This document shows positions 6,394 through 29,416 of a DNA stretch of 64,000 nt, in pieces. The stretch is from positions 2,108,001-2,172,000 of the forward strand of contig CM102287.1 in NCBI GenBank assembly GCA_046563655.1. Direction: 5' to 3'. Source of the DNA: Yuukianura sp. NJ FZ-2021. Taxonomy: Eukaryota. Numbering within the stretch: position 1 is the first letter of the stretch; every line of letters begins with the position of its first letter. Under the pieces are notes generated by a model. That model searched no databases. It was not told the origin of the DNA and saw only the letters and a list, made by a program, of their open reading frames with translations. A program made the translations under genes and the position numbers.

Positions 6394-6422
6394 TCATACA
6401 AAGTTTCAAATTTTATAATGGA

Positions 6423-6878: not shown

Positions 6879-6882
6879 ACAA

Positions 6883-7359
6883 ATGAATGCGTTAGATTTC
6901 CCTTTAGTAGAACAAATTTTATCCTTTCTGACTTCACAGGATATTATTAATTTCTATTTGGCACTTCAGACTAATAAATTGGAATTCACCAATTTACAAA
7001 TCATCTTAGCTACTAAATATTTCGCAATTAAGGATCAGCTTTTAAAACACACTGCTAAAATAAGTCCAAATCTTCATTTCGTGTCTTACGAAACTTCTAC
7101 AACTAGTTTTTGGAAATTCAATTTTACAAAAGCGTTTCTGTTAAACCTGCCACTAAAACACTTATTTCGATCAACTGCACAAATTTTAACCAACACATCA
7201 ATTTGTGGGATTGCAATCACAGTAAACCATTTTAATTCCTTTTCAGAATTAGAAAAGAAATTAATTAAGGCGAAATTTTCAGTTAAATTTAACAAACATT
7301 CAGCATATTCGGAAAGCAACTATATTTTAGAAGAAAAAACAACGTTGTATATGTTTTAG
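6883..7359 (+). CDS. Element A accessory ORF3, N-terminal F-box-like motif (158 aa)
   Basis: MNALDFPLVEQILSFLTSQDIINFYLA; paralogue of ORF2. Confidence 0.68.
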   Translation: MNALDFPLVEQILSFLTSQDIINFYLALQTNKLEFTNLQIILATKYFAIKDQLLKHTAKISPNLHFVSYETSTTSFWKFNFTKAFLLNLPLKHLFRSTAQILTNTSICGIAITVNHFNSFSELEKKLIKAKFSVKFNKHSAYSESNYILEEKTTLYMF

Positions 7360-7550: not shown

Positions 7551-7574
7551 ACATCAGTTAAAATCCAAATCAAA

Positions 7575-8741
7575 ATGAGTAAACCTACCAAAGTTGGAAT
7601 TGTTCCAACCAAGTTTAGTCCTAGGGACGATGCCTTCAAATGGTTACAACAATTCGAACTAGTTAGCATAGCTAACTCTTGGACAAATGAAATTAAAGTG
7701 GTCCAGCTTCCAAATTATCTAACTGCATCAGCTAGTTTATGGTACCTAAATTGGAAGAAAGAACGGACTGAAAAACATAAAGCTACTGCTAAGGAAGGTG
7801 ACACGGAGCCAGCAGTTACATGGGCTGAGCTAACTGAAGCGCTCCAGCGCGCTTTTCAAACTGTCGCTAACAAGGAAATAGCGGAACAGAAATTAAATGA
7901 CCGAAAACAACAATTAGGTGAAAGCTTCGAGGATTTTGTATATGCTTATATTGATTTGTGTAATGATTATGACCCTAATATGACTGAAGCCGTAAAATTA
8001 CGGAAGATTACAAGGTCTCTATTACCATACTATCTAGAAAAAATAAACCCTTTAAATTTAAAAACTATAGAAGAATTAATTAGTACAGGACGAAAAATCG
8101 CGGAAACTCAATTCATGTTAGAACAAAATGCTTCTGTGAATGCCGTTAGTGAGGTCAAACCAGAAATGGACAAACTCACAAAACTTTTTGAAAATCAGAC
8201 TGTTCTGATCACTAATATTCTGGAAAATCAGAAGGATTTATCTAAATTACATGAAGATAAAGAAAAGAGAAAAAATTCAAAAAATAATACAAATAAGCAA
8301 AATTTTAAATGTTATTCATGTGGATCGGATTCACATTTTGCTCAAAATTGTGACAAAAAATTCTGTCAAATTCATAATTCTACTACACATTCTACCTACG
8401 AATGTCGCTTAAAAAACGCAATTGGCCGGGGTCCACGGCCCAGGTATGCCATGGGTTCTCGGCCAGTTATATACCAACAACGCATGAATACCAATTACCG
8501 TCCTCGATTCCAATTTTCCCAACCTTTTGCCCTTCAAACTTACCAACCTCGGCCGAGGAATCCCTCCTACAACCCTCGTTCAACCCAAAATTTTCACAAT
8601 TACTATACCTCCCCATACCAATCCCAACAATTGAGCCAACCCTTTCAAAACAATCAAAATTCAACTTCCAATCCTACCCCAGTTCAGTATTACCAAAATC
8701 CACACCAACAGCAACCCACGTTTCCTCCCACGCTCAACTAA
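7575..8741 (+). CDS. gag: Element A Gag
   Basis: Capsid-like region (KWLQQFE...W...RKQQLGESFEDF), CYSCGSDSHFAQNC knuckle plus CQIHNSTTHSTYEC. Confidence 0.92.
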   Translation: MSKPTKVGIVPTKFSPRDDAFKWLQQFELVSIANSWTNEIKVVQLPNYLTASASLWYLNWKKERTEKHKATAKEGDTEPAVTWAELTEALQRAFQTVANKEIAEQKLNDRKQQLGESFEDFVYAYIDLCNDYDPNMTEAVKLRKITRSLLPYYLEKINPLNLKTIEELISTGRKIAETQFMLEQNASVNAVSEVKPEMDKLTKLFENQTVLITNILENQKDLSKLHEDKEKRKNSKNNTNKQNFKCYSCGSDSHFAQNCDKKFCQIHNSTTHSTYECRLKNAIGRGPRPRYAMGSRPVIYQQRMNTNYRPRFQFSQPFALQTYQPRPRNPSYNPRSTQNFHNYYTSPYQSQQLSQPFQNNQNSTSNPTPVQYYQNPHQQQPTFPPTLN

Positions 8742-11700
8742 AATCTTACGAATATTCTTTTATATTAGGCACCAACGGTGGCCTAATCAGAATTAACGGT
8801 CTAATTAATAACCTTCCAGCTCAAATTATAATTGATACTGGGAGTACAGTATCCTTAGTACACCCACGATTTATTCAAGACAAAAACTTACTTAAATTTA
8901 ATATGAACTTAGTAGGTATAGGTCCAGGGAAAGTTTCCGTTACTCACTGGGCAAGAATTCGAATTCAAATTAATAAAATGAGTATTTATTTTAACGTTTA
9001 CGTAGTACCGAGTTTAATGTTTGACTTACTGTTAGGGTTAGATTTTTGTAAGTTCCAAAAGATTTCTCTCAATGTTTCCGAAGAGAAAGTTTCCTGGCAA
9101 GGAATTGATTTAGAAATTGAACCAATAAGTTTAAATAACTTTTTACATAACGATGATAATTCAAAACAATTAAAACAACGAATATTGAATAAAAAGGTAT
9201 TATTATGTCAAATTAAAAATAGAAATCAAAATTTAATAATTCAAAGGAAGAATGAACCCATTCAGGCAGAAATGGAAGGGCACAAGCTGTCAGAACAAAA
9301 TAAACTTATTAATCAAGAAATAATAATTCAAAGGAAAAATGAACCCATTCAGGCAGAAATGGAAGGACACAAGCTGTCAGAAAATAATAAACTTATGAAT
9401 CGAAAAATAATAATTCAGAGGAAGAAAGAACCCATTCAGGCAGAAATGGAAGGACACAAGCTGTCAGAACAAAATAAACTTAAGAATGATCAACCCATTA
9501 CTTTGACAATGGAAGAACACACTGTGTTAAAAATAAACCAAGACATAAAAAATATGAAAAATAATAACGATTTTAATTTTAGGAACACAAGTAATGAATT
9601 AGATAACATTAAGTTACATAACGCGTTAGCATCAGAGCTCTCGTCTACACAACACCAGACACACAACCAGGATCCTTCTGTACATAATGTTAATAATTTC
9701 ATATTGCCGGCTAGGATAGTAAAATTAGTTAAAGTAAAGCTTAATGGCCACCTTAATGACTTGAATTATTTAGAAATTAGTGATGAATTAATTGAGTTAG
9801 GTATCTTAATGCCACCCATTTTGTTACGATCAATTTACTCGGATGAATTTTTGTTTCTTCCACTTATGAATATTCATGATTTCCCGATTACAATTTCAGC
9901 TAATACTAAAATTGCTAATATCAGTACTTTAGAAAATCTTCCAATTGAAGAAAACGTACTGAATATTGCTGAATGTCGTTCTGAAAATTCCAGTACACAA
10001 GTCGACAGTAATACATTCATTAATGATGAAACCCATGTTCAGACCATTTTAGCTAGAATTGCTTCGACAGCCTCATCCGAGGAAAAAACGTTGCTTGAAG
10101 AAATAATTCGAAAATATCAAGATGTTTTTGCTAGACCTGGAGAAATTGGTAAAATAAATTGCTACAAACATAAAATTACACTCATTCCAAATGCCTCTCC
10201 GGTTAAACGAGCTCCTTATAGGAAAGCTCCAGATCTTGAAAAATTTGAACGTGAAAAAATTCAGGAATTGTTAGAACAAGGAGTAATTAGACCATCATGC
10301 TCTCCTTGGGGAGCTGGGGTAGTTATAGTTAGGGATGGGCATAAGTCAGAACAAGAAAAAGAGCCACGATTTTGCATAGATTACCGTCCAGTGAATAAAG
10401 TTACAGTTAAAGATGCGTATCCATTACCAAACATTCAATCCATATTGGACTGGATCGCACCTAGAGCTAATAAAATATCAACCTTAGACGCACAAAAAGG
10501 GTACTGGGCAATATCAATGGATGAGGACAGCATACCTCTTACAGCTTTCATTACACAATCAGGCTTATTTGAATTTGTACGGCTTCCATTCGGTCTTTGT
10601 GGAGCGCCTGCGGCCTATTCCCGGGCACTTTCGATAATTTTGATGAATTACATTTGGACTAATTTAATTAACTATCTAGACGATATTATTTTTAGCAATT
10701 TAACAATTCAGGAACATGTAAAGGATTTAGAATTAGCATTTCAACGATTCAGAAAATATGGATTGAAAATAAATATTAAGAAAAGCCAATTTTTACGAGA
10801 AAAAATACGCATTTTAGGTTACATTGTTTCTAAAAATGGAATAGAAGTAGATCCTGAAAAAACAAAAGCAATTTCGGAGATTAAAACTCCATCTAATATA
10901 AAAGAAATCCAGCAGTTTCTTGGAGCTGTTTGTTTCTTTCGCCGTTTCATTTACCGTTATTCAGAACTTGCCAAACCGTTGACGATTTTGTTACATCAAG
11001 ATAAGAAATTTCATTGGGGTGAACAGCAAGAAAAATCTTTCCAACTTTTAAAAAATGCACTACTTACAGCCCCGGTATTAGCTCATTACGACCCTAATAA
11101 ACCAATCCATGTCGTTACGGATTCTAGTGGATACGGGTTAGGAGCGTCCTTACTGCAACCCGATGAACATGGGGTTGAAAGACCTGTTGCATTTTCTTCC
11201 CGTACTTTAAATAAAACTCAAATTAAATATTCTACCACAGATCGTGAATACTTAAGCATAATTCATGCATTACAGGTATTTCACCCTTATTTGGACTCTA
11301 AATTCTTTACAATTTTTACTGATCATCAACCCATTACTGGACTAAATTTTGCTAAAAATGAGTCTTCTTCCCGATTAGCCAGATATGCATTAATTTTGCA
11401 ACAATATGACTATAAACTTGTTTACCGTAAAGGAACGTTTAATAAATTAGCAGACTGTCTTTCACGTCTTCCCCTTCCTGACAAATTCGATGAAACAGAT
11501 ATAGAAGTACCAAGTTTTTTAATTTCTGAAGATCACTTACCCCAATTACAGTTAGCTGATTCCGATTGTATCCAAATTATAGAAAAAAATGTCTCAATCT
11601 GTATCAAAACCTAAATTTCAACTAAAAAATGGCATTCTGTACAATTGCAACTACGGATACCCACGTCTGGTGGTCCCTCGAGTACTCAGAAAAGAATTAC

Positions 11701-11843
11701 TACAATTAGTACACGAACAAACTCTTTCAGCACACTTGGGCTTTTCACGCTCCTTTGATAAACTTTCTTTGCGCTATTTTTGGCCGTCCATGGCTGCTGA
11801 TCTATCAAATTTTATTCAAGCTTGTAACTCGTGTTTAATTAAT
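8411..11843 (+). CDS. pol: Element A Pol: PR, RT, RNase H and integrase Zn domain; 1-nt frameshift near 11583-11590; split by B
   Basis: IIDTGS, NYLDD, TDSSGYGLGA, TDHQP; H-H-C-C motif in the 11589 frame; slippery A AAA AAC in the gag frame at 8411-8417. Confidence 0.92.
9235..9500 (+). repeat. Three in-frame 87-bp (29-aa) tandem repeats in A pol between PR and RT
   Basis: IIQRKNEPIQAEMEGHKLSEQNKL repeated three times. Confidence 0.9.
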
Positions 11844-12955
11844 TGTTATGGTCAGCATACTGGTTTCCGTGGACACTGACCGATCCACTGAAGCCAGACC
11901 ACTCGGTTGACCTTGTGACCTCTGGTGGGCTCAAACCGACCCACCGAGTCTCCACCTTTCTTCCAGAAGTTTCTGCTCCACTTCCAATGAATTGGAAGGG
12001 GACAGAAGTTTCTCGAAGAAGCAGAAGGGCAGGCTAATAAATTAGCCGTGTCCTTCAACCCAAAATTGTAACACCCGAACACAGAAGCCTGTGTTAAAAC
12101 AAAGGGACAAGCCTTCTGCTTGTCACGAGTCCTTCAGGCCTGGGATCCCTAAAAAAGGAATCTCAGCCCTGAACAAGGGGTCAGTTGTGACTTTGGCTTT
12201 TGGTGGTTACTTTGTCTAAGCGTACAATCTCAGAACCTTGAACGTACATTAAAAATACAACTTAGCAAGTACATTGGAGAGTGCAGAATTCGACAACTTT
12301 ATTTGCCACGACAGGGAAGTGAGATCATAGAACCAGTGAAAGTAGAGACGTGTGTGTGGAGAGTAGTTTCATTGAGTAAGAGATCTACATTGGTGCCTTC
12401 TCCGACTTGGACTTGGGCCGATCAACCACTTGATCCACAGAGAGAGCACATTAACCCAATCTCACCTTCCGACGGGACGGGAGTAGTGTACCTAGGGAGG
12501 AGGAGAGTGTGTACCCAGGAAACCAGACACAGCAGAAGTGACTAGGGTTGGTCGATCATTTTCCAGGTAGCCAATTTACATTGTCTCTTCATTTCCGCTT
12601 TCTATTCTGTCCATCCTCCTCTCTCTATTACTCCTCACTATTTCTGGAGATGAGACGGGAACAGCGCTCCACTTCTAGCAAATCGCTAGGAGTGGACGAC
12701 ACAGCTAACAAACCGTTAGTTGTGTCTCCAGCGACACTTCTGACCCTTGGCTAATCGCGGGGGTCATCGAGCCTCACCGGTCTTCACCATGAGGGGAGAT
12801 CTGCTTCAAGTCACAGAGGATGCCTACCTCGGATGATTCTGCTCACCTAGGTAGGTGGGTTCTAATTCGGCCGATCAGGCCAATTAGAACCCACGGTGGG
12901 GCACCTTGGGTGGGCCCATCGAGAGTTGGAGGTGTTAGGTGTTAGTAGCGTATCA
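11844..12955 (+). repeat. 5' LTR of element B (1112 bp)
   Basis: TGTTATGG...TATCA; direct repeat of 19167-20277. Confidence 0.96.
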
Positions 12956-14562
12956 GACTGGGGGCTCAGACGGGAAACAGCTGGTGACCTTTTCCTAAAC
13001 ACCAGCAAATGTCGTTCGTTACTTTCACTTTCACTTTCACTTCCACTCTCTCCTGCCTTCCAGTTCTTAACTGTGAGGAAAAAGCTCTGCTTTGCCTTCG
13101 TTCGAAATCACTTTCAATTCCGAACTGACAACGTCTGCTACTCAGTGGAGGTCACCCGGGGCGTTGCCCCTCGGATCCAGCTCCTCTTCACTCCATCGTC
13201 ACTCCGTGGCTCACGCAGGAAGGTTTGACCTGTTACTGGGCTATGGGGGGGGGATGCCAAGGTCAAGAGGAGCATTCCACCTCTTTCCAGTACAAACCTG
13301 CTGGAAGCGGTGGGTTGGTTTAAAATTCTGAAAAACAAAACTAAAATTCCCCTGGTGAATCCTGGAAATTCTGCAAATCTTTCACTGAATTCTTCTAAAT
13401 CTTCATCAAAATTCGGTAGAATCTGTTAGTTGCTTGTACCTGGAATCTATAAGGAAGAACAGGCGTCTAAGTTCAGCTCCACTTCTTCAGTTTTCGGGAA
13501 CACGTGACCCATTGTCCCACCGAGATCCCACATGGACGCATGGCGTGGTTAGTAGGGGGTGGCAGTGGAAAATTAGTCACTTATCTTTCTTTGGTTAGAT
13601 TTTTCTTTTTGTGTGACCTCTGGGGTCAATCCCACAACTCAAAAGTGGGAAACCTGATAACTTTCAAAAACTTTTCGGCCATTTATTTTTATTACTCTTT
13701 CGACACTCCAAATTATTGCCTAGCTAAATCTCTGCGTGAGATAAGGAGGATTTTAGGTTTCGAAAAACTGCTGTTATCTGCAACGCAGTTAACTTTTCAG
13801 TTATTATCAACGTTCTGTTTGAACTTTATGTAATCTTCGGATTTGGAGGTTTCAAAAACTGGAAGTTAAGCACGTCTCTGCAATTAAGATTAACTTGAAG
13901 ATCCGGCACGAGGAGGAAGAGATGGGTGGATCCTAGGTACCCCTCCTTTCTCATCCACCCTCACCTTAGTTTAATTGATGTTTTGCGAATCTGATTCGCA
14001 AGGTCAATCAAACTTTGAGTTCGCTCGGTCTTCATCTGCTTCTGTCTGATCTGTTGTCTGCTGTCTGGTGTCTGGATGGGAAGACTTTTGGTGAAGGCTG
14101 AAAAACGCTACCCTGGATTTTCAGAAATCCTGACGGTCAAGTCCAAATCTCATCATGTTCTGGTCTGATTCTGTTCTGTTCTGCAAACTGCTCTGCTCTG
14201 ATTCTGGTCTGATTCTGATTCTGCAAATGGACTTTGAGGAATGACGTTTGATCTGTCTTGAATCCGGGTAGATTCCTAGAAGCCAAGATCAACTGGAGAA
14301 CCCAAGTCTAAAATATTCTGCTTCTGTTCTGAACTTTGATTATTGTGGGGAAGCTTCTAGTGATTAGTTAGTTAATTACTGAAGCTGGAAAACTATAATT
14401 CAAATGGATTATTAATTCAACGGAGAAATAGATACCAGTATGTGCCTCGAACCGAATCCGCTAGGTTCCAAATTGGGAACGCGCTGAACTCTTACTTCCT
14501 AAATGCTTCTGGGGAGATCCGGGTTAATTAAGGATTAAAGAAGGCTGTACATTTTCCAGAAA

Positions 14563-15585
14563 ATGGCCCACGCAACCATGGATGACTTGACCTCAAGGCT
14601 CAAGAAAACCTTAGTTTCGCCAAGAGGCCACGAGTCGGAACTTGAAGAGTCTTCGTCGGAAGAACCGGAGAGCGATGGGTTGCAAGTTTATTCTGATGCT
14701 AGTCAGCGGGGCGCTGGCCAAACAGTTCAGTTTCCCACACGACCTAGCCATTCAGTTCCCTTCGGAGGTTTAAACAAGATGTCAGCTGTATCTCTTCCAC
14801 TCGCTCCTACCACTGGAACGCAGACCGACATGGGACCCAAAGTGGGCCCGTGCAAATCTGACTCTGTTTTCATGCCTCAATTTAAAGCAAATTCTGAAAT
14901 AAACTGGACTCCAGCAGCTAAGATTCAGTTCAGTCTTCCAGAGGTAGAGCCTCCTACTGGTTTGATGAACGAAACCAAATCTGCTTCTGTTCGAGGGAAT
15001 TCGGAGACCGACGGTGGCTTACGTCCTGTCCGCATCCCGATTCAACCGCAACGTTTCACTGGACATAGAGGATCGGATCCTCAGGCTTATTTGGAAAATT
15101 TCAATCGCATTAGCATCTGCAACGGCTGGAATGCACAGCATAAACTGATCTTCTTCCCACTCTACCTTTCTGGTTTCGCTGCTCGCTGGTATGCCGCTGC
15201 TACCATGGAGAGACAGAGACAAGGGAAGGCAGTCTGGACTTGGCAAGAGCTTGAAGCCCTGTTCAAACGTCACGCGAATTGTTCGGCATCCAAACCGGAT
15301 GACGAATGGCAATTGTTATCTAGAAAACAGAAACAGGGGGAAGCTTATCTCGACTACTTTATACACATGCAGAACCTTGCGGATAGAGTAAGTCCGGACA
15401 TGAGCGAATCCCTACGTGTGAAGTATACGCTGAGGGGTCTGGAACCAACCTTACGGCGTCAAATTGGCATGCATAACCCTGATACCATGGCGAAGCTTCG
15501 AACACTTTTGGAAATTGCTGAACGCAACGAGCAGTCAGACTCCGTTTTTGGTTCTCCCGATCTGTACTACGAAACAACCGATTAA
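14563..15585 (+). CDS. gag: Element B Gag capsid-like protein, no CCHC knuckle (340 aa)
   Basis: PQRFTG...DPQAYLENFNRISICNGW...LYLSGFAARWY...RKQKQGEAYLDY is a typical retrotransposon gag domain. Confidence 0.85.
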   Translation: MAHATMDDLTSRLKKTLVSPRGHESELEESSSEEPESDGLQVYSDASQRGAGQTVQFPTRPSHSVPFGGLNKMSAVSLPLAPTTGTQTDMGPKVGPCKSDSVFMPQFKANSEINWTPAAKIQFSLPEVEPPTGLMNETKSASVRGNSETDGGLRPVRIPIQPQRFTGHRGSDPQAYLENFNRISICNGWNAQHKLIFFPLYLSGFAARWYAAATMERQRQGKAVWTWQELEALFKRHANCSASKPDDEWQLLSRKQKQGEAYLDYFIHMQNLADRVSPDMSESLRVKYTLRGLEPTLRRQIGMHNPDTMAKLRTLLEIAERNEQSDSVFGSPDLYYETTD

Positions 15586-15806
15586 TCCATAGTTAACCGT
15601 GGCTCAGTGGTCTCCTACCCATAATCACTACGATTCTGGGAAGTAAAACTAATACCTTCTCAACTACACGATTATGTTCTTAATTAAATGATTAAGGATT
15701 AATAGAAATCACGTTAAACTTTGATACTTCAAATAGTCGAACAATTGGTTCCACGAATCGAACTGTTACCTAGTACCAGGTTAACATTTCTTCTCTGCTT
15801 TCCAGA

Positions 15807-18608
15807 ATGCACAACAATTTGTACCAACCTAACATTTCTGTGACTGAAGGCAGAGAGTTGAACTACAAGGTTTGGCAGCGAGAAGTAAAATGGCAAGGAC
15901 ACCAACTCACTCCACCGCTCAACTTCGACTCCATACCGGAGCCGGAGAAAATGCGGGCTTACAACATTTACCTTGAGTCGGTTCGACTCGGAACTCGCGT
16001 TAATGCCATGCTGGCCAACATGTTGCGGCAGAGGGACTTCGTCTTTGCGGCTCCAATTGAGCACCAGCTGAAGGGCGAAGAAATGCTCAACCGCGGTGGT
16101 CCACATTACCGCCACATCCAAACAAACCACATCAAATACACGAAAAAGTACAAGGCAACTCCGAGGGTGCGAGCACAGTTAAATCCACAACCACAACAAC
16201 GCCACCGAGGTCAACCCCGACAGTATCGGAATGATAATTATTCCGACAATGACAATGAGTACTATGCTCGTCACGCCTCACCAGAGGTTGAAGAATTACC
16301 AAACCGGCATTCTTCTCCTCGCAGCAAATCACGTGAACGATCCGAGGGCCCCAGGAGCGACTCCAGTCGGTACCACAATAGAAAATCTGACGATCGTGAT
16401 CGAAACTGTAATCCCCAGCGTTATCGCCGCCGGGACAACTCTCCAGACCGGAGGAAATACTCCAGCCCTCAGCGACATCTTCATCAAAGCGATAAAGAAA
16501 GCCGAAGTGACAACCGACATTCCAACTCCACACGCCATCACGTAGATCGTTCCGGTACTCGAACAGAGTATTGGACTGATTTTACCGCTCATTTTTCCAA
16601 AAGCAAGAAAGTCGATCGATTGGAGCAGCGCAAGCAGCACAAATCAGCAACACAGCTCCAAGTTTCCAGTGCTCAACCCGATCAGTGGACCGATGTGGGA
16701 GAAAAACATTCCTATTCACACCATCGATCAACAGCCCAACCGTCCACTCACCGCAAACCTAATTCCTTCTTCGGATACCGCTGTTTGTCTCCTCCTGCAG
16801 TACATTTCAAGACTGGAATTGATGGCCAAACCGGTCATTCTTCCATCAACTACCAGCCGGTATGGGAAACTCGGAACACGACAACTACCTACAAACAGTT
16901 CTGGACTAATTCCAAACCCACAACCGATGTGCGTTCAACAGAGATGGAGATCAACAGGAGTCCACTCCCAAACTACTCTCCGCCCAATCCCAACTCCCGT
17001 CCATTCCCAAAAGGTGGATTCATTAAACCGGAACTGGAGGATCGCTTTTCACGCCATAATCCTCTCCCAAATGATGTCAAAACATATGGCGGTTACGAGC
17101 GCGACACTTTTCGTAAGACCACCCAACGAGAGAATGCGTACTTCAGTACCCTACACCGACCCAAGTCTACGACAAGCCCATCGACAAACCCGCAAGATAT
17201 TTCAGGAAAAGTGACTGAAATTGATTGCACGATCCACAACGCTCCACCTTGGCACACCAATGGTATATCAAACCGACTACCATCGAAACTCTCACCTTCG
17301 GTAAACAGCCAGCAAAAGATTACTCAGCCAAATCAGCTCAGCCAACCGTCAAAATCCCTGTCTAATTTTGCTGGATTGTTACCTAAACCAAAATCCGTTG
17401 AACAGGACGCTCTTAGTTCTCCAACTGAATCAGTTGACGTACTTGCACAAACCGTGCAAGTACGAACGAAACACACAGGTCAACGCCCGCCAATCCCGGA
17501 AGTGGACGAACCGTCAACTCTAACTCGCCTCACCTCGTCCACACTTATAGAGAAACTGTACGCAAAAATCCAAAGTCTCGAGCAAAAATTTGAGGAGCAA
17601 AATCTTCACCTTCAAACATCTCCAAAACAAACTCCAATCACGAGTAACTCGGCTTCCGCCCAGCAATGCCAACGACAAAGACAGCAAAAATCATTTCCCC
17701 TACCCGTTCCACACAATTTCTTTTCAACGGAACCCCGGAAAGAGCTAGTTGTACAACTAAAGCAACTCACGGAGGAAGAGTGCAGTAACAGCAACACTAC
17801 TACGTCACCAAACGGAGGCCAAAAGTCTAACTCATCACTAGCTAATTTCAAAATTCCTCTTCTCTCCAAGCAGAAGGCTCCGGTCGTTCGCCGTTCCCGC
17901 GACCCATTTCCATCTCCGAGACGGACTAAAACCTCAGCTTTGTCAAAACAGCAGAAAACAGAGTCTTCCCCTGCATCCCAACGGGCGAACTCTTGGTCCA
18001 CACCGGATCGCAAGCGCTCTACTCATCACTCCCGAGAGACGTCACGATCAGAAGGCTCAAAACCGAGGCGTAGATCAAAATCGCCTCCTCAATGCTCCAC
18101 TTCACGTCCTAAACGTAGACCACAAAAGACGGAAAAGCGAACTATCAAAATTAAACTCCCATTCCCAACTATCGAATTCACACAAGACGATTTTCCACCA
18201 CTTCCCACCAAAACCATCACTATTCTCCACGACGCTCACCGTACCAGCTCCAAAGCAACAACAGCCTACCTCCGCCAGCTAAAGGGAAAGAAGCGTCCTC
18301 AACCAACTCCCGGGGCCCCACGAACCGTGAAGTCTCCACCACCTCAGGAACCGAGCATACCGCTCAAACCCCAACATCCGGACACCTCGGAAGCCACCGA
18401 TCCCATCCGCCCTGGAACACTACAGCATCCCACCAACCCAGCTCCAAAGTCCCCCGATATTCCAATCATCACCATTCCGCCAGGACTGATCTCCTCCGAC
18501 CTACCAAGTAACTTCAAAGAATATCTGCTTGATGCTACCGAAGAATACATCCATCTCAATGAAGTGGATCAAGAAGACGACGCAGTATCCACCAAACCGC
18601 GAGATTGA
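15807..18608 (+). CDS. Element B ORF2, 933-aa S/R/P/Q-rich, probably disordered protein
   Basis: Long uninterrupted ORF with no PR/RT/IN motifs; polypyrimidine-CAG acceptor (15804-15805) just before the ATG. Confidence 0.7.
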   Translation: MHNNLYQPNISVTEGRELNYKVWQREVKWQGHQLTPPLNFDSIPEPEKMRAYNIYLESVRLGTRVNAMLANMLRQRDFVFAAPIEHQLKGEEMLNRGGPHYRHIQTNHIKYTKKYKATPRVRAQLNPQPQQRHRGQPRQYRNDNYSDNDNEYYARHASPEVEELPNRHSSPRSKSRERSEGPRSDSSRYHNRKSDDRDRNCNPQRYRRRDNSPDRRKYSSPQRHLHQSDKESRSDNRHSNSTRHHVDRSGTRTEYWTDFTAHFSKSKKVDRLEQRKQHKSATQLQVSSAQPDQWTDVGEKHSYSHHRSTAQPSTHRKPNSFFGYRCLSPPAVHFKTGIDGQTGHSSINYQPVWETRNTTTTYKQFWTNSKPTTDVRSTEMEINRSPLPNYSPPNPNSRPFPKGGFIKPELEDRFSRHNPLPNDVKTYGGYERDTFRKTTQRENAYFSTLHRPKSTTSPSTNPQDISGKVTEIDCTIHNAPPWHTNGISNRLPSKLSPSVNSQQKITQPNQLSQPSKSLSNFAGLLPKPKSVEQDALSSPTESVDVLAQTVQVRTKHTGQRPPIPEVDEPSTLTRLTSSTLIEKLYAKIQSLEQKFEEQNLHLQTSPKQTPITSNSASAQQCQRQRQQKSFPLPVPHNFFSTEPRKELVVQLKQLTEEECSNSNTTTSPNGGQKSNSSLANFKIPLLSKQKAPVVRRSRDPFPSPRRTKTSALSKQQKTESSPASQRANSWSTPDRKRSTHHSRETSRSEGSKPRRRSKSPPQCSTSRPKRRPQKTEKRTIKIKLPFPTIEFTQDDFPPLPTKTITILHDAHRTSSKATTAYLRQLKGKKRPQPTPGAPRTVKSPPPQEPSIPLKPQHPDTSEATDPIRPGTLQHPTNPAPKSPDIPIITIPPGLISSDLPSNFKEYLLDATEEYIHLNEVDQEDDAVSTKPRD

Positions 18609-19166
18609 ACTACTTGACAACAAACTGTGAAGACTGACCAGCGTAGCGTTAAGTTTCTTTCCTGTTGAATTCATTAATTATCAACTACTTTTTTTCTTAT
18701 CTTTTCCATCTCATAGTTATTACATTAGCTAAAATACTAACCAAGTACCTCTAAGATAAACTAGTATCAACCATTACTGCATAGTTACCTCAAACAATCA
18801 ACAATCTTCAAATTTTATGAAGTTAACCTCTTTGCAACTATTTTACTAAATTCGAACTAATTTGCTACAACTTTTCTTATCTCAAACATAAAACACTCGT
18901 AATTAACTTTATTTTGTATAACAGTAATCACATCCCCTCTACGAAACTTGTTAACCCTCCAATTTAGTTTTACAAATTCTTATTAGATACCTTCGTAGTT
19001 TTAAGATAATATGATTTCACTAACTCCACTAACCCTGTAATATTACATTTACCTCACGTAAAATGCCAATGAATCAGTCACCACAAGCCAAATCAGTCTA
19101 CGCAGCTTTGCAACGCAATCACCGCTTAGAGCTGATGAGACATCAGCTTCCCGAGGGGGGGAGTGG

Positions 19167-20277
19167 TGTTATGGTCAGCATACTGGTTTCCGTGGACACT
19201 GACCGATCCACTGAAGCCAGACCACTCGGTTGACCTTGTGACCTCTGGTGGGCTCAAACCGACCCACCGAGTCTCCACCTTTCTTCCAGAAGTTTCTGCT
19301 CCACTTCCAATGAATTGGAAGGGGACAGAAGTTTCTCGAAGAAGCAGAAGGGCAGGCTAATAAATTAGCCGTGTCCTTCAACCCAAAATTGTAACACCCG
19401 AACACAGAAGCCTGTGTTAAAACAAAGGGACAAGTCTTCTGCTTGTCACCAGTCCTTTAGGCCTGAGATTCCTAAAAAAGGAATCTCAGCCCTGAACAAG
19501 GGGTCAGTTGTGACTTTGGCTTTTGGTGGCTACTTCGTCTAAGCATAGAACCTCAGAACTTTGACATACATTAAAAACACAAGTTAGCAAGTACATTGGA
19601 GAGTGCAGAATTCGACAACTTTATTTGCCACGACAGGGAAGTGAGATCATAGAACCAGTGAAAGTAGAGACGTGTGTGTGGAGAGTAGTTTCATTGAGTA
19701 AGAGATCTACATTGGTGCCTTCTCCGACTTGGACTTGGGCCGATCAACCACTTGATCCACAGAGAGAGCACATTAACCCAATCTCACCTTCCGACGGGAC
19801 GGGAGTAGTGTACCTAGGGAGGAGGAGAGTGTGTACCCAGGAAACCAGACACAGCAGAAGTGACTAGGGTTGGTCGATCATTTTCCAGGTAGCCAATTTA
19901 CATTGTCTCTTCATTTCCGCTTTCTATTCTGTCCATCCTCCTCTCTCTATTACTCCTCACTATTTCTGGAGATGAGACGGGAACAGCGCTCCTCTTCTAG
20001 CAAATCGCTAGGAGTGGACGACACAGCTAACAAACCGTTAGTTGTGTCTCCAGCGATACTTCTGACCCTTGGCTAACCGCGGGGGTCATCGAGCATCATC
20101 GGTCTTCGCCATGAGGGGAGATCTGCTTCAAGTCACAAAGGATGCCTACCTCGGGTGATTCTGCTCACCTAGGTAGGTGGGTTCTATTCGGCCGATCAGG
20201 TCAATTAGAACCCACGGTGGGGCACCTTCGGGTGGGCCCACTGAGAGTTGGAGGTGTTAGGTGTTAGTAGCGTATCA
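19167..20277 (+). repeat. 3' LTR of element B
   Basis: Direct repeat of 11844-12955, preceded by a PPT. Confidence 0.96.
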
Positions 20278-21915
20278 TAATAAAGTATCACATGAAAAAA
20301 GATACGGGCTTCTTAAACCACTTCCAGTTCCAGAAACAATTTTTGAACTGGTTTCAACTGATGTATGTGGGCCATACCCAATTAGCCAATCAGGAAACAA
20401 GTATATTGTCAATATTATTTGTCATTTTTCTAAATGGGCGGAGCTTAAAGCGATACCTGACCAAACAGCTGAAGCTATTGCTAAATTTTTACACGAAAGG
20501 GTTTTTTCACGTATGGGTTCTGTTCGTTACTTATTAAGTGACAACGGAGGACCGTACATAAGTGAATTATTGAAAACTTACTGCAGGTTATATAAAACTA
20601 AACATTTATTTATCACGCCTTATAATTCTAGGGGCAACGGACTTGCTGAACGGTTACATTTAACAATGAATCGTATGCTATCACATTATGTCAGCACAAT
20701 GCACAATAACTGGGACCTAAATTTAGAACAAATTCAATTTGCTTACAATACTGCTAAACATGAAAGTACTCATCAGAGTCCCTATCGTATTGTATTTAAT
20801 CGTGAGCCATCATTTCCTTATCAATTACCTTCTTCTGAGACTTTACGGTCTAATTGCGACATTTTTCATCTGCGTAAACTTGTAAAAGAAACTTTAGAAA
20901 AAGAACAAGAAAGATATAAAATTCGTGAGGATCAACGACGCAAGGAAGTCGATTTTAAAATTGGAGACAAAATTAAACTCAAATTTCCTCGCCGCACTGA
21001 GAAAGGTCAATCTAAAAAATTTATACCATACTATTTAGGGAATTACGAGATTTTAGAAAAACTTAATGATCTCCTCTATAAAATTAAATGTTTAAAAACA
21101 AATACCGTTTCCACAGCACACGTAGGAAGAATGCGGAAAATTTTTGCTTGGGACTTACCAGATATCGAAAGTGATACATATTACACTACTCTTGACAATT
21201 TAAAAGAAGATTTAGACTCTCCCGAGAAACTATTTTTTACTTTAAAACAAAATTTTACTGGAACCAGACAAGAATTAACTCATCCCTTTTCCACTGGATA
21301 TACTTCTTTTGACATTATTTACTATAAATCATTATTAAATTGGATAGATATACAACAAATTATTGAAAAATACGGACTAACTGACATTTTACTACTAAAC
21401 ATTTATTCGTTTGTAACTAATTATTTTCCACGGTTAAAGCTTACTCCTAATTTTCAAATTTTTACCCTGAAGAAGCCAATTCCATTTGCAATCTATAAAT
21501 TCACAAGCGAAATTTCTTTTAACGATCTAGAAGAATTCTTTACTCATATGCATCGAAAAATTTTACTACGTTTTGATAAAAATTTGTTTGAATTTTTGTT
21601 AAAATTTATTACACATTCTAAAAATAAATTATATTTATATCCTTCAATATCTAAAATTCTACAGACCCTATTATTCAACGTTGGTAGTGACAATCTCAAT
21701 TTAGTAAACTTAACTACTATTCTTACCTTACCTCCATTAAAGAACTATACAAAGAAAGTGAATTCATACCAATCAATGACAACTCGTGAGATGACGAGGG
21801 ACCAAATACTTTCACTCCACAAGGAAAGATGAAAGAACAATTTCGACAAAAACCATATGAAAAACGCATTAGAAAGAAACCAATTTGGATGAAAGATTAT
21901 GTAGTTGATTCCTAA
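20278..21915 (+). CDS. pol: Element A integrase core with long C-terminal extension (late frameshift before ~21830)
   Basis: VSTDVCGPY, LSDNGGPY, GNGLAER (DDE), GPY/F-like region; tail KRIRKKPIWMKDYVVDS* lies in a shifted frame ending 21915. Confidence 0.88.
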
Positions 21916-22029: not shown

Positions 22030-24198
22030 CAACGAATTTTTTTCCTTATTTTCACAAGATTTTCAAATTCTACATTCATTATATTACTAACAATTTTAGC
22101 ACTCCTTTTCTGTTTAGCTCAAACCCAGGATTCTCCTATTGATCAACTGTTTACAAAATTGGACACTAAAACCGAAATTCTGTATTACTGTAGGGGATAT
22201 ACGGCTGGAATTCCTTGGAATATTCCTCCACCAATCAAATGCCCACTAGTTTCGACGGAAAAACCTTCTAAACTAGTAGACATAACTCTCTGGTGGACTG
22301 ACATTAGTTTAAATGCTATTCAGGGATTCGAATGTTACAAAATAGTAGAAGAGGTTAAAACCTACCGCCATTTTTTTGGGAAAAGAGATAAAGAATATCG
22401 GAAATACAAATTACCTGTGTCAGAGAAAGAATGTCGCTTAATGATAAGAACTCACGCAAGCCCCCTGACATCACAAACCAAATTAAATCGCATTTCTGAT
22501 GGTTACTTTGGTACTGCTGACATATTATCTCTCGACTACTATTGGCTCGGCACTGATTACAAAACAGTTACGAATTATTTCATGGTCGCTCTGACACTTT
22601 CAATATCCAATACAGATGATACCATAATTACTACTGCGAAAACTGTAGGACAATGTAAATATCAGACAGGTACATGTGATACCGAAAATGGAATTCTTTG
22701 TTGGACTCCAAAGGACGTGAAGATATGTAGGATGAAAGAAGGTGATTCTGCTACATGTTTATTTACTGAAGATCGCCTGTCATGTCCAACATTAGAAATT
22801 GCCATTACTAAAGTCATTCCTGTTAAAAAATGTGGATTGATTTTCGGTACATCTGCTCAAGGTATTATTTTCACCGAGAGTAATAATTCTTTAAATTTTG
22901 CTATTTCTTTAACGAATCTCACGCGGAATGTAATCAATAATCCCACACGTTATAAACGTTCTCATGACGATGATTCTTCTGAAGAAGATGAAGGTTCCGC
23001 GGAGGAAATTGAAACACAAAATGGTGAAACTCTCATACCTAAATTATCGGAACTATTAATACCAGCACCAGAAAAACCCGAAACTCCAACATTGGTAACT
23101 ACGGGAGAACTCAATAGCAGATTACTTTACTTATATCAAATTGTTTCAAGTTCTTACCATTTTGGTATTCAAACTGTTCATCGCGACACGTGCAAAGCCC
23201 ATCAAGCACATTTAGAACTTCTTAGGGTACTAGCAGCTACGGGACAACCTAGTGTACTGGTACGCACGTTACTAAAAAATCCAGCATTACGAGCTAAAAC
23301 AAATGGAGACATCCTTTCTGTTTATAAATGTGAAGAAGTTGACACTTACATGCTACTTCCTCAAACTGGTTGCTATCTGGAGTGGCCAATTGAATTTTAT
23401 GTAGGCGTGGACCGAATGCAAGGGTACTTAACTGGTATCAATCATGAAATTGTAAAAGACCCAACTCATACTTCTTGTCCATCTCCTAATTTTTATTTTG
23501 AATATGGAACTATGACTATTCACTTGACTAACAGAACAGTTATTGAAAATTTATCAGTTTTACCTTCTAACTATGAAGACACAAAATTGGAAACAATGCC
23601 AGAATTGTCCTTCTCCGCCCCTGGAGTCTACTCATTGGACGAAGTGGGTGGAGCAGAGACAATTGCGGCTATCTTAAAGGAACTTTCTAAACAAAATAAA
23701 ATTGACAATATCTTACAAAGCACACATTCCAACTTAGGACCTATTGAATCAAAAACTATTACTCTGTTAAGAGAATACGTATTAACACCTTTCCAAAACG
23801 TTTTAGCCACTATTTGCATGTCCGGACTAGCCATTTTTATTGTTGTTATAACACTCAAGTATGCGTATAAAAACAGAGCGTATTTTCAACAGATCTTTCA
23901 TAGAATTAAATTACTTTCGCATACTAAGAAAAAAAGACAAGTTCGTAATAAGCCTGTTAAAATCCCTAGCAGCGATTCCGAAACTGAGAATGTTCCTTTA
24001 CAAGTTCAAGCTCCAGTAATGAACACTCGACAGGTTATGAGAAGAACTAAATCACGGAAAAATCGATCTCGGGTTGTCAACAGTAATCCAAAAATATTTA
24101 AACCCCAATATTCCTGTACCACTGTAAATGAGGTTCGTAAACCTAATAACTTAACACCCAAATATCCATTTGAAGAATTAAAAAGAATTCAAAATTAA
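22030..24198 (+). CDS. env: Element A Env, class III viral fusion glycoprotein-like (gB / rhabdovirus G / chuvirus G type)
   Basis: Frame is open from 22030 with a signal-like FIILLTILALLFCLAQ but no ATG; Cys-rich ectodomain, candidate fusion loops RHFFG and YYWLG, furin site RYKR, gB-like RTLLKNPALRAKTNGDILSVYKC, C-terminal TM and basic tail. Confidence 0.8.
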   Translation, partial: QRIFFLIFTRFSNSTFIILLTILALLFCLAQTQDSPIDQLFTKLDTKTEILYYCRGYTAGIPWNIPPPIKCPLVSTEKPSKLVDITLWWTDISLNAIQGFECYKIVEEVKTYRHFFGKRDKEYRKYKLPVSEKECRLMIRTHASPLTSQTKLNRISDGYFGTADILSLDYYWLGTDYKTVTNYFMVALTLSISNTDDTIITTAKTVGQCKYQTGTCDTENGILCWTPKDVKICRMKEGDSATCLFTEDRLSCPTLEIAITKVIPVKKCGLIFGTSAQGIIFTESNNSLNFAISLTNLTRNVINNPTRYKRSHDDDSSEEDEGSAEEIETQNGETLIPKLSELLIPAPEKPETPTLVTTGELNSRLLYLYQIVSSSYHFGIQTVHRDTCKAHQAHLELLRVLAATGQPSVLVRTLLKNPALRAKTNGDILSVYKCEEVDTYMLLPQTGCYLEWPIEFYVGVDRMQGYLTGINHEIVKDPTHTSCPSPNFYFEYGTMTIHLTNRTVIENLSVLPSNYEDTKLETMPELSFSAPGVYSLDEVGGAETIAAILKELSKQNKIDNILQSTHSNLGPIESKTITLLREYVLTPFQNVLATICMSGLAIFIVVITLKYAYKNRAYFQQIFHRIKLLSHTKKKRQVRNKPVKIPSSDSETENVPLQVQAPVMNTRQVMRRTKSRKNRSRVVNSNPKIFKPQYSCTTVNEVRKPNNLTPKYPFEELKRIQN

Positions 24199-24285
24199 CA
24201 CCAAACCTATAAAACTAAAATCACACTATACATCTATACTTTACTATACTATACATCTATTCCTATTTTTGTGTCCAACTTTCTA

Positions 24286-25810: not shown

Positions 25811-25970
25811 TCATACTTTTCTTTCAATCTGTTTTTGTTTCTTACACCTAGCTATCATAATCGTTACATTCTAACTCAAATGTCCAGTTACCTATTACAC
25901 AATTATCTTTATGTGGTTACTTCTAAATACACAATTTTTGGGGACAAAAATTTTTTTATGAGGGGAGACA

Positions 25971-26389
25971 TGTTACACATACCATACGCAAAGAAAAATT
26001 ACTAAGCCTAAGTTACTTTCTTTTGTTCCTTGTTTTTCGACCTTCACTGAAATCCCTTGAACTTGGGTAAAACAACTCCCGATTTTTGTATTTTGAAAAT
26101 AGTTCTCTTTTCCGATCTTGTTTTGTTATTTAGTAAGGTTAAGGTCACTCCATAAGGTCTAGGCTAAGAATTTCCTTTAAATACCGTAGTACATCACTGT
26201 AAGAGGCAGTTGAAATTCGGACTCTGTTTGGTTCGGATCCAACTAAAACTCCGGGGTAGCCAACTAACTAGGCACTCGTTGAGTTTACCTAACCTAACCT
26301 TCCTCTCCCAAAAGTAAGTTAAATAAAAATAATGCACAAGTATTTTTCGAAGGCCTTTATTTTACAAGTTCAAATATGAACTTGTAACA
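25971..26389 (+). repeat. 3' LTR of element A
   Basis: Direct repeat of 5094-5513; PPT GAGGGGAGA at 25960-25968. Confidence 0.96.
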
Positions 26390-27015
26390 GCCGGAGCCTT
26401 CCACTCTTCCAGAAAGGTGTCATCTACACTAGACTCGTTCTCATTTTCATCTTCTTCTTCACCATCACTCACACTGGGTGTTTCTTCTTCTTCGCTAGTG
26501 CTTTTATCCTCCACAATACGTCTTTTCTTTCTAGGGTTCACTCCTCGAGACGGCTGAAATAGGTATTGTCTTGATTCATGTAACTCATGTGTTGGCAATT
26601 TACGGGATTTCATAAACTGAATCATCCCCGAAATCAACGAACCGTTTAGCCTGCGTCTACCATCACTAATAACACGAATTCCGTCTTCAAAGTCACAGCG
26701 CTGCATTTGTTCACAGCCAAAAACAACAGTTTCCCCTTGTAAAATGGCTCCATTATTCAGAAAAAGCTGAAGAAGGTTTTGTCCTTGTTTTGAAAAGTTT
26801 GAAAAATTGAACTGGTTTTGCTCCAGAATCGGTTTTAGCAACTCCGTGGGCTTGTGGTCTTCCACGACTTTTGCCTCAACTTCCAATGTCTTTATGTCTT
26901 TTGAATCACCTGACTTTTGCTGTTCCACGTTTCGTCGATTCTGGAATTGACGAAGTAGGGCGTGGCATATGGTTTTGAAGTTCAACTGATGTCTTTCCGT
27001 TGTCGAACTGGTCAT
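26390..27015 (-). CDS. P hypothetical protein downstream of the ATPase; its last codons (SWE*) are displaced to ~5076-5088 by element A
   Basis: Right-arm copy ends KAPASWE*; left copy reads into the A LTR after KAPA. True start is uncertain and may lie in the overlapping ATPase ORF tail. Confidence 0.55.
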
Positions 27016-28948: not shown

Positions 28949-29416
28949 GAGTTGCTAAAACCGATTCTGGAGCAAAACCAGTTCAATTTTTCAAACTTTT
29001 CAAAACAAGGACAAAACCTTCTTCAGCTTTTTCTGAATAATGGAGCCATTTTACAAGGGGAAACTGTTGTTTTTGGCTGTGAACAAATGCAGCGCTGTGA
29101 CTTTGAAGACGGAATTCGTGTTATTAGTGATGGTAGACGCAGGCTAAACGGTTCGTTGATTTCGGGGATGATTCAGTTTATGAAATCCCGTAAATTGCCA
29201 ACACATGAGTTACATGAATCAAGACAATACCTATTTCAGCCGTCTCGAGGAGTGAACCCTAGAAAGAAAAGACGTATTGTGGAGGATAAAAGCACTAGCG
29301 AAGAAGAAGAAACACCCAGTGTGAGTGATGGTGAAGAAGAAGATGAAAATGAGAACGAGTCTAGTGTAGATGACACCTTTCTGGAAGAGTGGAAGGCTCC
29401 GGCCAGTTGGGAATAA
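28949..29416 (+). pseudogene. 5'-truncated inverted copy of the 26390-27015 ORF
   Basis: Starts mid-gene at ELLKPILEQ, exactly at the arm boundary. Confidence 0.8.

Follow-up and report, generated by a model that had tools for sequence, protein, structure and literature searches.

The envelope (env) gene in the 64,000-nucleotide stretch of Yuukianura sp. DNA analysed here, which we call the window, sits within a true Ty3/Gypsy (Metaviridae) LTR retrotransposon, and its product is predicted to be a class III, gB/G-like fusion glycoprotein. We are highly confident in the explanation that this is the env of a gag-pol-env Ty3/Gypsy element, that the association of this backbone with a class III env is old and shared with the gB-type 'errantiviruses', and that the copy in the window is recent and defective. 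The combination of a Gypsy backbone and a gB-like env is real here, and has already been described across animals, including springtails. It leaves the view of envelope acquisition by retroelements unchanged.

The env-bearing element spans positions 5094–26389 and is bounded by 420 bp LTRs with TG...CA termini. Coordinates of its features are collected in Table 1. The pol domains assigned with Pfam follow the order PR-RT-RH-IN, and a search for relatives of the RT gave 2282 matches at E ≤ 0.001, the best 120 of which carry RVT_1 and RT_RNaseH(_2), most of them together with rve and Integrase_H2C2. The families Peptidase_A17, DUF1759 and DUF5641 are absent from the element's gag and pol in the Pfam scan; the window's BEL/Pao copies (34421–39558 and 42126–46364), by contrast, do have Pao-type families. 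Domain order, LTRs and the target-site duplication bear out the placement of env in a Gypsy element that had been made in a preliminary description of this DNA. The empty target site is preserved on the opposite arm of a perfect inverted repeat, whose right arms (29399–30034 and 28949–29403) overlap by exactly the five target bases. This repeat, 2.9 kb long, surrounds the A32-like ATPase, and it may be either genuine or the result of a filled and an empty haplotype having been joined during assembly. That both element borders and the empty site are clean within one window is of modest value. Assignment of the integrase and env to the neighbouring A32-ATPase (Maverick-like) sequence was considered and rejected: the LTRs enclose both, and the integrase is the continuation of the Gypsy pol.

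Pfam matched nothing in the three open frames that precede gag, the second and third of which share 29% identity, or in the frame that follows env. Comparison of the post-env frame with the ORFs that follow env in three related loci (L001, L002 and L003) likewise showed no similarity, although those three are 34–42% identical among themselves. The reverse complement of the primer-binding site TGGTGCCGAAAG agrees at 11 of 12 bases with the Phe_GAA_His_GUG-type site listed for Fcan_errantivirus_1 in the master table of PMC13524379.

Table 1. Features of the env-bearing element, its env product and its target site, in window coordinates.
Feature	Position	Strand	Remarks
Target-site duplication GCCGG, left copy	5089..5093	+	Repeated after the 3' LTR
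5' LTR, TG...CA	5094..5513	+	Agrees with the 3' LTR at 413 of 420 aligned columns
Primer-binding site TGGTGCCGAAAG	5516..5527	+	Read from sequence
Three consecutive open frames (174, 163 and 164 aa)	5869..7359	+	Upstream of gag, in three different frames
gag	7551..8741	+	PF03732 Retrotrans_gag, E 7.7e-5, 23.3 bits (just under the cut-off of 24.1)
pol: protease, RT, RNase H, zinc-finger part of integrase	8378..11843	+	Pfam on open frame 8378–11614
Nested unrelated LTR element, 8434 bp	11844..20277	+	Inserted in pol; target-site duplication TAAT
pol continued: integrase core (rve), SH3-like C-terminal domain	20278..21832	+	PF00665, E 6e-11
env	22030..24198	+	Class III fusion glycoprotein (predicted)
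Signal-peptide-like hydrophobic stretch, env residues 10–33	22057..22128	+	Hydropathy scan; aligns with signal peptides of relatives
Putative fusion loop 1, HFFG, env residues 114–117	22369..22380	+	Tip of beta hairpin
Putative fusion loop 2, YYW, env residues 170–172	22537..22545	+	Loop preceding model strand 142–159
Furin-type site RYKR, env residues 307–310	22948..22959	+	Followed by acidic low-confidence linker, residues 311–350
Long central helix, env residues 358–403	23101..23238	+	Model helix 325–370, within the PF24664 match
Transmembrane anchor, env residues 590–612 (stretch about 588–613)	23797..23865	+	Single, C-terminal
Post-env open frame, 424 codons	24199..25473	+	Acidic/Ser-rich C-terminus
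Polypurine tract GAGGGGAGACA	25960..25970	+	Read from sequence
3' LTR	25971..26389	+	Pairs with the 5' LTR
Target-site duplication GCCGG, right copy	26390..26394	+	Matches the left copy
Empty target site, one copy of the 5 bases	29399..29403	-	Other arm of the perfect inverted repeat

The env frame is open from stop to stop over 722 codons, and no second env-like stretch occurs in the 64-kb window. Its predicted product is a type I membrane glycoprotein of class III fusogen fold, with 15 cysteines between the N-terminal hydrophobic stretch and the C-terminal transmembrane stretch. The motif GFECYKIV... starts at residue 99, YYWLG at 170, RYKR at 307 and RAKTNGD... at 421; each motif that the preliminary description quotes is found, as are its furin site and transmembrane segment. 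HFFG forms the turn between model strands 63–80 and 86–96, within the match to PF00974, and its FFG is conserved among aligned relatives. YYW is the loop after HFFG in a domain that aligns with the fusion/PH region of VSV G, and relatives retain an aromatic residue and the W at this site. We infer that these two sites are fusion loops 1 and 2 of the env. The furin-site region reads R-x-[KR]-R in six of the eight aligned relatives that cover it and K-x-K-R in the other two, and model confidence falls below a pLDDT of 50 just downstream of RYKR. The central helix is 46 residues long in the monomer model and corresponds to domain III of class III fusogens. Beyond the transmembrane anchor, a basic tail of 110 aa carries a terminal YPxxEL motif. 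No ATG lies ahead of the signal peptide, and the frame does not reach one until residue 139; in env relatives a Met directly precedes the signal peptide. The earlier description of an uninterrupted ORF thus holds for the frame, which is open between its stops, but not for its start.

The resemblance of the predicted env protein to class III fusogen families is far above chance. The Monjiviricetes_fusion family PF24664 matches residues 361–539 with 45.6 bits (gathering cut-off 27; E 3.2e-12), and is also recorded for four env relatives (P0002–P0005). The match to Rhabdo_glycop_FD (PF00974) is borderline, at 22.1 bits with the cut-off set at 22. Three Pfam families match the env in all, none of them an F-type env family, and PF00606 was not matched in the Pfam scan. 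A PDB sequence search with the env returned nothing relevant, its best hits (E 1.5) being chance matches to adenosine receptors.

An AlphaFold (AF2) model of env residues 34–615 has a pLDDT of 84 and a pTM of 0.65. Foldseek comparison of this model with the PDB gave 125 matches at E ≤ 0.001, the best with an E-value of 6.1e-18 and a probability of 1.00, and all of the best 32 are herpesvirus gB. VIA-align superposes the model on prefusion-stabilised HSV-1 gB with a Z-score of 14.3 and an rmsd of 5.5 Å over 334 residues; among the 50 matches listed, 49 are gB and one is VSV G (Z 9.8, 200 residues). Against the viral models of BFVD, the best match is the glycoprotein of Shayang ascaridia galli virus 2 (E 7.3e-27). 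Glycoproteins of nyaviruses and of rhabdo-like and chu-like viruses come next, and gB does not appear until rank 24. An ESM Atlas look-up also returned PF24664 clusters, at a low recognition value of 1560 that adds little. Profile and predicted structure together identify the env as a class III gB/G-like fusogen by fold and not an F-type protein. This agrees with the class proposed in the preliminary description, for which structure prediction and Foldseek now give gB, and not a class I F protein, as the best PDB match.

Relatives of the env number 178 at E ≤ 1e-3 among 1.84 billion representatives. Six metagenome loci have at least 800 nt of sequence upstream of env and are informative about its neighbours, and in five of these env is immediately preceded by a Gypsy pol or integrase. 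Env follows Gypsy pol directly in L001, L004, L005, L009 and L006, with an env identity of 33–44%; L007 has an env with no pol ORF of at least 150 aa within 10 kb upstream. The window element and L001, the nearest intact relative, are 47% identical in gag, 52% in RT-RH, 49% in IN and 44% in env, and the downstream portion of pol (20278–21832) is 49% identical to L001 pol residues 766–1245. Relatives come in one order whether they are ranked by pol or by env similarity. In a quick maximum-likelihood tree of 51 RT-RH rows, from which P0162 (fewer than 400 residues aligned) and L009 (partial RT) were left out, an 8-row clade with an SH-aLRT of 100 unites the window with all three of the env-linked loci in the tree. 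The recurrent pol-env layout and the concordant ranking argue for an old association of pol and env, not a fresh capture. Genomic copies of the env, taken from short DNA contigs of at most two samples in two studies, differ at 39 listed variant sites, of which 28 are at third codon positions (13 expected). This third-position bias hints that the env coding frame may have been under selection while the family multiplied, and as such is of modest value. The environmental relatives, at 33–49% env identity, extend the Collembola-type gB env family, which is likewise of modest value.

Chary and Hayashi (eLife 2026, PMC13524379; preprint 2023) catalogued 1512 Ty3/gypsy elements with an env from across Metazoa. 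The env is either F-type or gB-type, the latter being about as common as the former, and the authors argue for an ancient env association. The statement in the preliminary description that gB/chuvirus-like env is mainly found in BEL/Pao elements is out of date in the light of that paper. Its Collembola_C2 group comprises Fcan_errantivirus_1, Scur_errantivirus_5 and Yper_errantivirus_2. One of the env relatives that we found (P0008, which matches the window env at E 2.2e-108) contains a 25-residue string that is exact in Collembola_Entomobryomorpha_Fcan_errantivirus_1 and occurs once in the supplements of that paper. Six of 11 short motifs searched for are present, and among the gB-type groups of supplement 2 they appear only in the three Collembola_C2 rows. 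By these sequence matches the window env belongs to the same family as the published Collembola gB-type env, and the Collembola elements are the closest described group to the window element. The tie to Collembola_C2 rests on the env and on the 11/12 primer-binding-site match. What the window contributes is one more, damaged, example of a systematically catalogued class.

This copy is damaged in pol. With L001 pol as a tblastn query, the alignment passes from frame 2 to frame 3 between positions 11584 and 11607, and then jumps to 20279 past the nested element. The nested element has LTRs at 11844–12955 and 19167–20277 (1085 identical positions, 25 mismatches and 3 gaps), its own gag at 14539–15585 and a 944-aa frame; it has no RT, and the 944-aa frame is without a Pfam match. 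The LTRs of the env-bearing element are 98% identical, so the insertion is young, but it is defective. The catalogue of PMC13524379 includes elements with intact gag, pol and env, and this copy has a frameshifted pol, a nested insertion and an env without a starting ATG. It is a degenerate member and not a catalogue-grade element, and cannot replicate by itself. Production of protein from this copy is without support, since no ATG lies ahead of the env signal peptide.

The preliminary description had proposed an independent capture of env by a Gypsy lineage. A recent acquisition of a class III glycoprotein by this one lineage, from an RNA virus or a herpes-like virus, is in our judgement very unlikely. 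The nearest viral structural neighbours of the env are glycoproteins of negative-strand RNA viruses and the matching Pfam family is named for the Monjiviricetes, which makes exchange between such viruses and retroelements plausible at some time. Against capture by this lineage alone, however, the same env family follows Gypsy pol at five other loci at 33–44% env identity, pol and env similarities give one ranking of relatives, and close pol relatives carry this env family at every env-linked locus in the tree. Published Collembola Ty3/gypsy elements have the same env family too, and an ancient association is argued for in PMC13524379. With its env in the family of the published Collembola gB-type elements and its pol clustering with the pols of other env-linked loci, the element falls under the preliminary description's own condition for refutation, and independent capture is not supported.

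It is highly improbable that the env is an endogenous viral element, that is, a mononega- or chu-like glycoprotein gene integrated by chance between integrase and LTR and unrelated to the biology of the retroelement. According to PMC10084718, fragments of Gypsy or BEL/Pao sequence often flank the glycoprotein EVEs of Jingchuvirales. The window env, however, is on the same strand as the rest of the element, in the standard env position and within intact LTR borders and a target-site duplication; the layout recurs in unrelated contigs, other RNA-virus genes were not seen among the ORFs scanned, and the third-position bias among copies suggests selection on the coding frame. The likelihood that we give to a host-domesticated, syncytin-like fusogen gene that merely lies in transposon-rich DNA is close to negligible. 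The env frame is long and open although pol is destroyed, as such a gene would require, but it has no start codon, lies inside LTRs and came with a young insertion. Many diverged fragments and a high word depth in DNA runs also fit a family with many copies rather than one host gene.

For an intact member of the family, the proposed mechanism is as follows. The env would enter the secretory pathway by its signal peptide, trimerise around the long central helix and be cut at the R-x-K/R-R site, with one C-terminal transmembrane helix as its predicted anchor. The aromatic loops HFFG and YYW would then enter the target membrane and bring about fusion, and Gag-Pol particles could pass from cell to cell. 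Such cell-to-cell passage has been shown for Drosophila gypsy. A more far-reaching reading is tentative, and we hold it doubtful: the window lineage (the 8-row pol clade and its env) may still be active as a gB-type retroelement that can pass from cell to cell in springtail-like soil arthropods, with accessory frames peculiar to the lineage upstream of gag and downstream of env, an env under current purifying selection, and nyami- and chu-like RNA-virus glycoproteins as its closest viral kin. Outside the window, this pol clade and the env genes linked to it are known only from environmental contigs. If the reading is true, the lineage would be well suited to asking whether class III fusogens passed from RNA viruses to retroelements or the other way.

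The env shares with herpesvirus gB (HSV-1 gB, PDB 9dd7 and 2gum) a class III fold over most of its modelled ectodomain, a long central helix, a single C-terminal anchor and cleavage at a basic site between N- and C-terminal halves, which in the env is predicted. It is shorter than gB and only 11–15% identical to it, and no gH/gL/gD partners are evident for it. The glycoproteins of Monjiviricetes (nyami-, rhabdo-like and chu-like; PF24664) provide its best profile and structural matches, and its fusion-domain motif matches PF00974 at threshold; the viral models listed are 12–17% identical to it. These viruses have a negative-strand RNA genome, whereas the env here lies in a DNA-integrated LTR retroelement.

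Among retroelements, the Drosophila errantiviruses (gypsy, ZAM and Idefix) are also built on a Gypsy backbone, carry env as a third ORF at the corresponding position and have the same presumed use for it in cell-to-cell spread. Their env is a baculovirus F-like class I protein, in contrast to the predicted class III env of the window, and the F-type class I env by which errantiviruses are classically defined is missing from the window element. Mosquito BEL/Pao elements with a chuvirus-like glycoprotein, as reported by Dezordi et al. (2020, PMC7642597), likewise combine an LTR retroelement with a class III env, but the backbone in the window is Gypsy. In PMC13524379, a short 'mini' domain between RNase H and integrase, and not a duplicated pseudo-RNase H, marks an 'ancient' group of errantiviruses. 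We used L001 in place of the window for this region, which the frameshift breaks. A model of L001 pol residues 490–720 (pLDDT 73) has one canonical RNase H, two helices and three short strands, and then a zinc finger; this bridge, a short helix plus three-strand region after a single RNase H, would be compatible with the 'mini' region of the 'ancient' group. The closest comparison is with Collembola_C2. The window copy differs in being damaged, and its frames before gag and after env are without mention for the elements in the sections of PMC13524379 used here. The two have in common the gag-pol-env order in a Ty3/gypsy backbone, a primer-binding site of the same tRNA type and the same env family, the window env being roughly 35–40% identical, as judged by eye, to the published Collembola domain I–II sequences.

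The env frame of the window (coordinates of this and the other features are collected in the table) is open for 722 codons, stop to stop, and carries all of the motifs quoted in the preliminary description. A hydropathy scan finds a signal-peptide-like stretch and a membrane anchor, with 15 cysteines between them. In Pfam, the protein matches PF24664 (Monjiviricetes_fusion) at E 3.2e-12 and 45.6 bits (cut-off 27), a resemblance far above chance, and PF00974 (rhabdovirus G fusion domain) at 22.1 bits, just at the threshold of 22. At the basic site, six of eight relatives in the alignment have R-x-[KR]-R and two have K-x-K-R. The frame had been described as uninterrupted, which holds from stop to stop but not for its start: no ATG lies ahead of the signal peptide and the earliest in-frame ATG is residue 139, unlike in the relatives, which have Met immediately before the signal peptide. 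A Y-P-x-x-E-L motif at the extreme C-terminus of the cytoplasmic tail is conserved in the alignment at the C-termini of four protein relatives (P0002, P0003, P0005 and P0006) and could serve in sorting or budding.

The env fold was modelled for residues 34-615 using a 45-row alignment of relatives (mean pLDDT 84.0, pTM 0.65). Foldseek returned 125 PDB matches at E<=0.001 (best E 6.1e-18, probability 1.00); all 32 matches listed are herpesvirus gB, and none is F-type. Re-scoring of 993 of Foldseek's top chains with VIA-align placed prefusion-stabilised HSV-1 gB first (Z 14.3, rmsd 5.5 Å, 334 residues). Of the 50 VIA-align matches listed, 49 are gB and the last, which spans model residues 43-259, is an intermediate form of vesiculovirus G (Z 9.8, 200 residues). 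Searching the PDB with env by sequence alone gave no relevant match. Among predicted viral structures (BFVD), the top match is the glycoprotein of Shayang ascaridia galli virus 2 (E 7.3e-27), followed by nyavirus and then rhabdo-like and chu-like virus glycoproteins, with herpesvirus gB first appearing at rank 24. Given these matches to gB and to glycoproteins of negative-strand RNA viruses, env belongs to the class III fusogens (gB / Monjiviricetes-G kind) and is not F-type, as originally proposed. The model suggests HFFG and YYW as putative fusion loops, and the segment after RYKR is an acidic linker of low model confidence. Two uncharacterised entomopoxvirus proteins, Q9YVZ3 and W6JPK9, are also structural neighbours of env (E about 1e-17, BFVD ranks 33 and 38), and insect poxviruses may therefore also have class III-like glycoproteins.

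The assignment of env to a Gypsy element is borne out by the paired LTRs (413 of 420 aligned columns identical), the GCCGG target duplication, the PR-RT-RH-IN order of pol and the Ty3/Gypsy relatives of its RT. Between the LTRs, the gene order is short frames, gag, pol, integrase, env and a 424-codon frame. Pao-specific Pfam families are absent from this element and present in the window's BEL/Pao copies. The three frames between the primer-binding site and gag are consecutive, about 165 aa each and in three reading frames; the second and third share 29% identity, and no Pfam family matched any of them. A long open frame without a Pfam family directly follows env both here and in several relatives. 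Those of the metagenome contig loci L001, L002 and L003 are 34-42% identical among themselves, and the window frame has no detectable similarity to these three. The post-env frame may represent an accessory gene of this lineage that evolves fast; the available parts of PMC13524379 make no mention of one.

Features of the window, of its env protein and of related loci
Feature	Position	Strand	Remarks
Inverted repeat arms	2283-5093 + 26390-26844 vs 28949-32208		centre 26845-28948
LTR direct repeats	5094-5513 and 25971-26389		TG...CA ends
Target duplication GCCGG			5 bp, flanks env element on both sides
Primer-binding site TGGTGCCGAAAG			two bases past 5' LTR
Three short open frames	5869-7359		no family
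gag	7551-8741		
pol (protease, RT, RNase H)	8378-11614		
Nested unrelated LTR element	11844-20277		TSD TAAT
Nested element gag	14539-15585		PF03732
Nested element low-complexity frame	15774-18608		944 aa, no family
Integrase core and SH3-like domain	20261-21832		
env	22030-24198	+	
Open frame after env	24199-25473		424 codons, no family
Polypurine tract			ahead of 3' LTR
A32-like packaging ATPase	26906-28090	minus	PF04665
Further LTR retroelement stretches	34421-39558, 42126-46364, 47667-51585, 53075-54349, 1-2531		
Signal-peptide-like hydrophobic stretch	env residues 10-33		
GFECYKIV...	env residue 99		
HFFG	env residues 114-117		hairpin turn in model
YYWLG	env residue 170		
YYW	env residues 170-172		next loop, domain aligning with VSV G fusion/PH region
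RYKR	env residue 307		
Central helix	env residues 358-403		46 residues, model
RAKTNGDILSVYKC	env residue 421		
Membrane anchor	env residues about 588-613		
Y-P-x-x-E-L	env residues about 711-722		window 24160-24195
Post-env frame of L001	L001 6029-7483		
Post-env frame of L002	L002 2511-4169		
Post-env frame of L003	L003 1300-2919		

Mapping the intact pol of L001 onto the window reveals a frame change between 11584 and 11607, and the alignment then jumps from about 11843 to 20279, across a nested, unrelated LTR element. The 1.1-kb LTRs of this nested element align with 1085 identical positions, 25 mismatches and 3 gaps. Neither RT nor integrase was found within it, and it therefore appears non-autonomous. 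Because of the pol frameshift, the nested insertion and the lack of an env initiator codon, the env-bearing copy cannot be autonomous either.

The preliminary description had read the element as an independent capture of env by a Gypsy lineage, and we compared env and pol across relatives. A word-indexed search gave four env relatives at 43-49% identity, and when 1.84 billion representatives were searched exhaustively with HMMER, 178 passed E<=1e-3, of which 39 also passed E<=1e-30. Scanning metagenome contigs with env yielded 13 loci, six of them informative, with 800 nt or more of sequence ahead of env. In five of the six (L001, L004, L005, L009 and L006), env is immediately preceded by a Gypsy-type pol or integrase of the same strand; L007 has no ORF of at least 150 aa with a Pfam match within 10 kb. 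The window and L001 are 47% identical in gag, 52% in RT-RH, 49% in IN and 44% in env. The env proteins of L004, L005 and L009 are 34-36% identical to that of the window, and their pol is on the whole also more distant than that of L001, although the L004 RT-RH reaches 55% over a shorter overlap. In a quick maximum-likelihood tree of RT-RH (51 rows, with one of 52 dropped for short overlap and the partial L009 omitted), the window falls in an 8-row clade (SH-aLRT 100) holding all three env-linked loci entered. Branching in this clade follows the order of env identity: the window pairs with L001, L004 joins next and L005 after it. Outside the clade fall the other Gypsy copy of the window and the matches from named arthropods and fish. 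An independent capture is thus not supported: because env recurs behind Gypsy pol and the two agree in the relatives, the pattern in these sequences is that of an old partnership rather than a fresh capture.

A large perfect inverted repeat, 100% complementary over 1804 + 636 + 455 nt, holds the env element in one of its arms. The other arm crosses the insertion point uninterrupted, with the 5 bases in single copy, so that the window also contains the empty site. In the 2.1-kb centre lies the coding sequence of a packaging ATPase, A32-like (Polinton/Maverick-type) and with a C2H2 finger at its N-terminus. The arms are without any difference, yet the LTRs of the env element differ at 6 sites and 1 gap, and those of the nested element at 25 sites and 3 gaps. 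Gene conversion could account for identical arms alongside diverged LTRs, as could an assembly that joined a filled haplotype to an empty one. The remainder of the window holds further LTR retroelements, namely two BEL/Pao and two more Gypsy copies, none with an env-like frame. A Gypsy insertion apparently interrupts one of the BEL/Pao copies, whose integrase and DUF5641 continue from 53075.

The env ORF is covered, at high summed word depth and with many variants, by short DNA contigs that come from three coded runs (two studies, at most two samples). Some of them contain small insertions or deletions, including near the env start. Among the 39 variant sites listed within the ORF (a further 81 lie beyond these), 28 are at third, 10 at first and one at second codon positions, with 13 expected at each. 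This bias fits a multi-copy family with env under purifying selection during its spread, a reading that is suggestive only because the contigs cannot tell copies from strains.

How an intact family member would work can be proposed from its homology with gB and G and from the analogy of Drosophila gypsy, the latter as described in the available parts of PMC13524379. Its env product would be a trimeric type I glycoprotein, cut at the basic site. With its two aromatic loops inserted in the target membrane, the protein would refold around the central helix and thereby drive membrane fusion. Gag-Pol particles could then enter neighbouring cells, germline cells included.

Elements of this kind have been described. 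Chary & Hayashi (eLife 2026, PMC13524379; 2023 preprint) screened the genomes of invertebrates for intact Ty3/gypsy elements that carry env and, in the sections available, report 1512 from most phyla, with F-type and 'HSV/gB-type' env about equally widespread, and argue for an ancient env association. In PMC10084718, the part available describes Gypsy fragments beside Jingchuvirales glycoprotein insertions and no clear Gypsy capture. Supplement 2 of PMC13524379 gives domain I-II sequences by group, and six of 11 short motifs taken from env of the window or from relatives aligned with it occur there, each once and all in rows of the springtail gB-type group Collembola_C2 (Folsomia candida, Sinella curviseta and Yoshiicerus persimilis). 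Fcan_errantivirus_1 contains, without a mismatch, 25 consecutive residues of P0008, a protein related to the window env at E 2.2e-108. Window env residues about 79-290 align with the Collembola_C2 rows over their full length at roughly 35-40% identity, judged by eye. The master table lists a Phe_GAA_His_GUG-type primer-binding site for Fcan_errantivirus_1, GTTTCGGCACCA, which shares 11 of 12 bases with that of the window in the same sense, CTTTCGGCACCA. Together, the env family and the primer-binding site suggest a springtail host. In the same paper, what lies between RNase H and integrase distinguishes 'ancient' from 'insect' elements. This bridge is broken in the window element. In L001, a model of the region (pLDDT 73) has one canonical RNase H followed by two helices and three short strands, which appears to fit the 'mini' domain. 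The window element is of a type already described and is a defective copy; its nearest published counterpart is the Collembola gB-type group.
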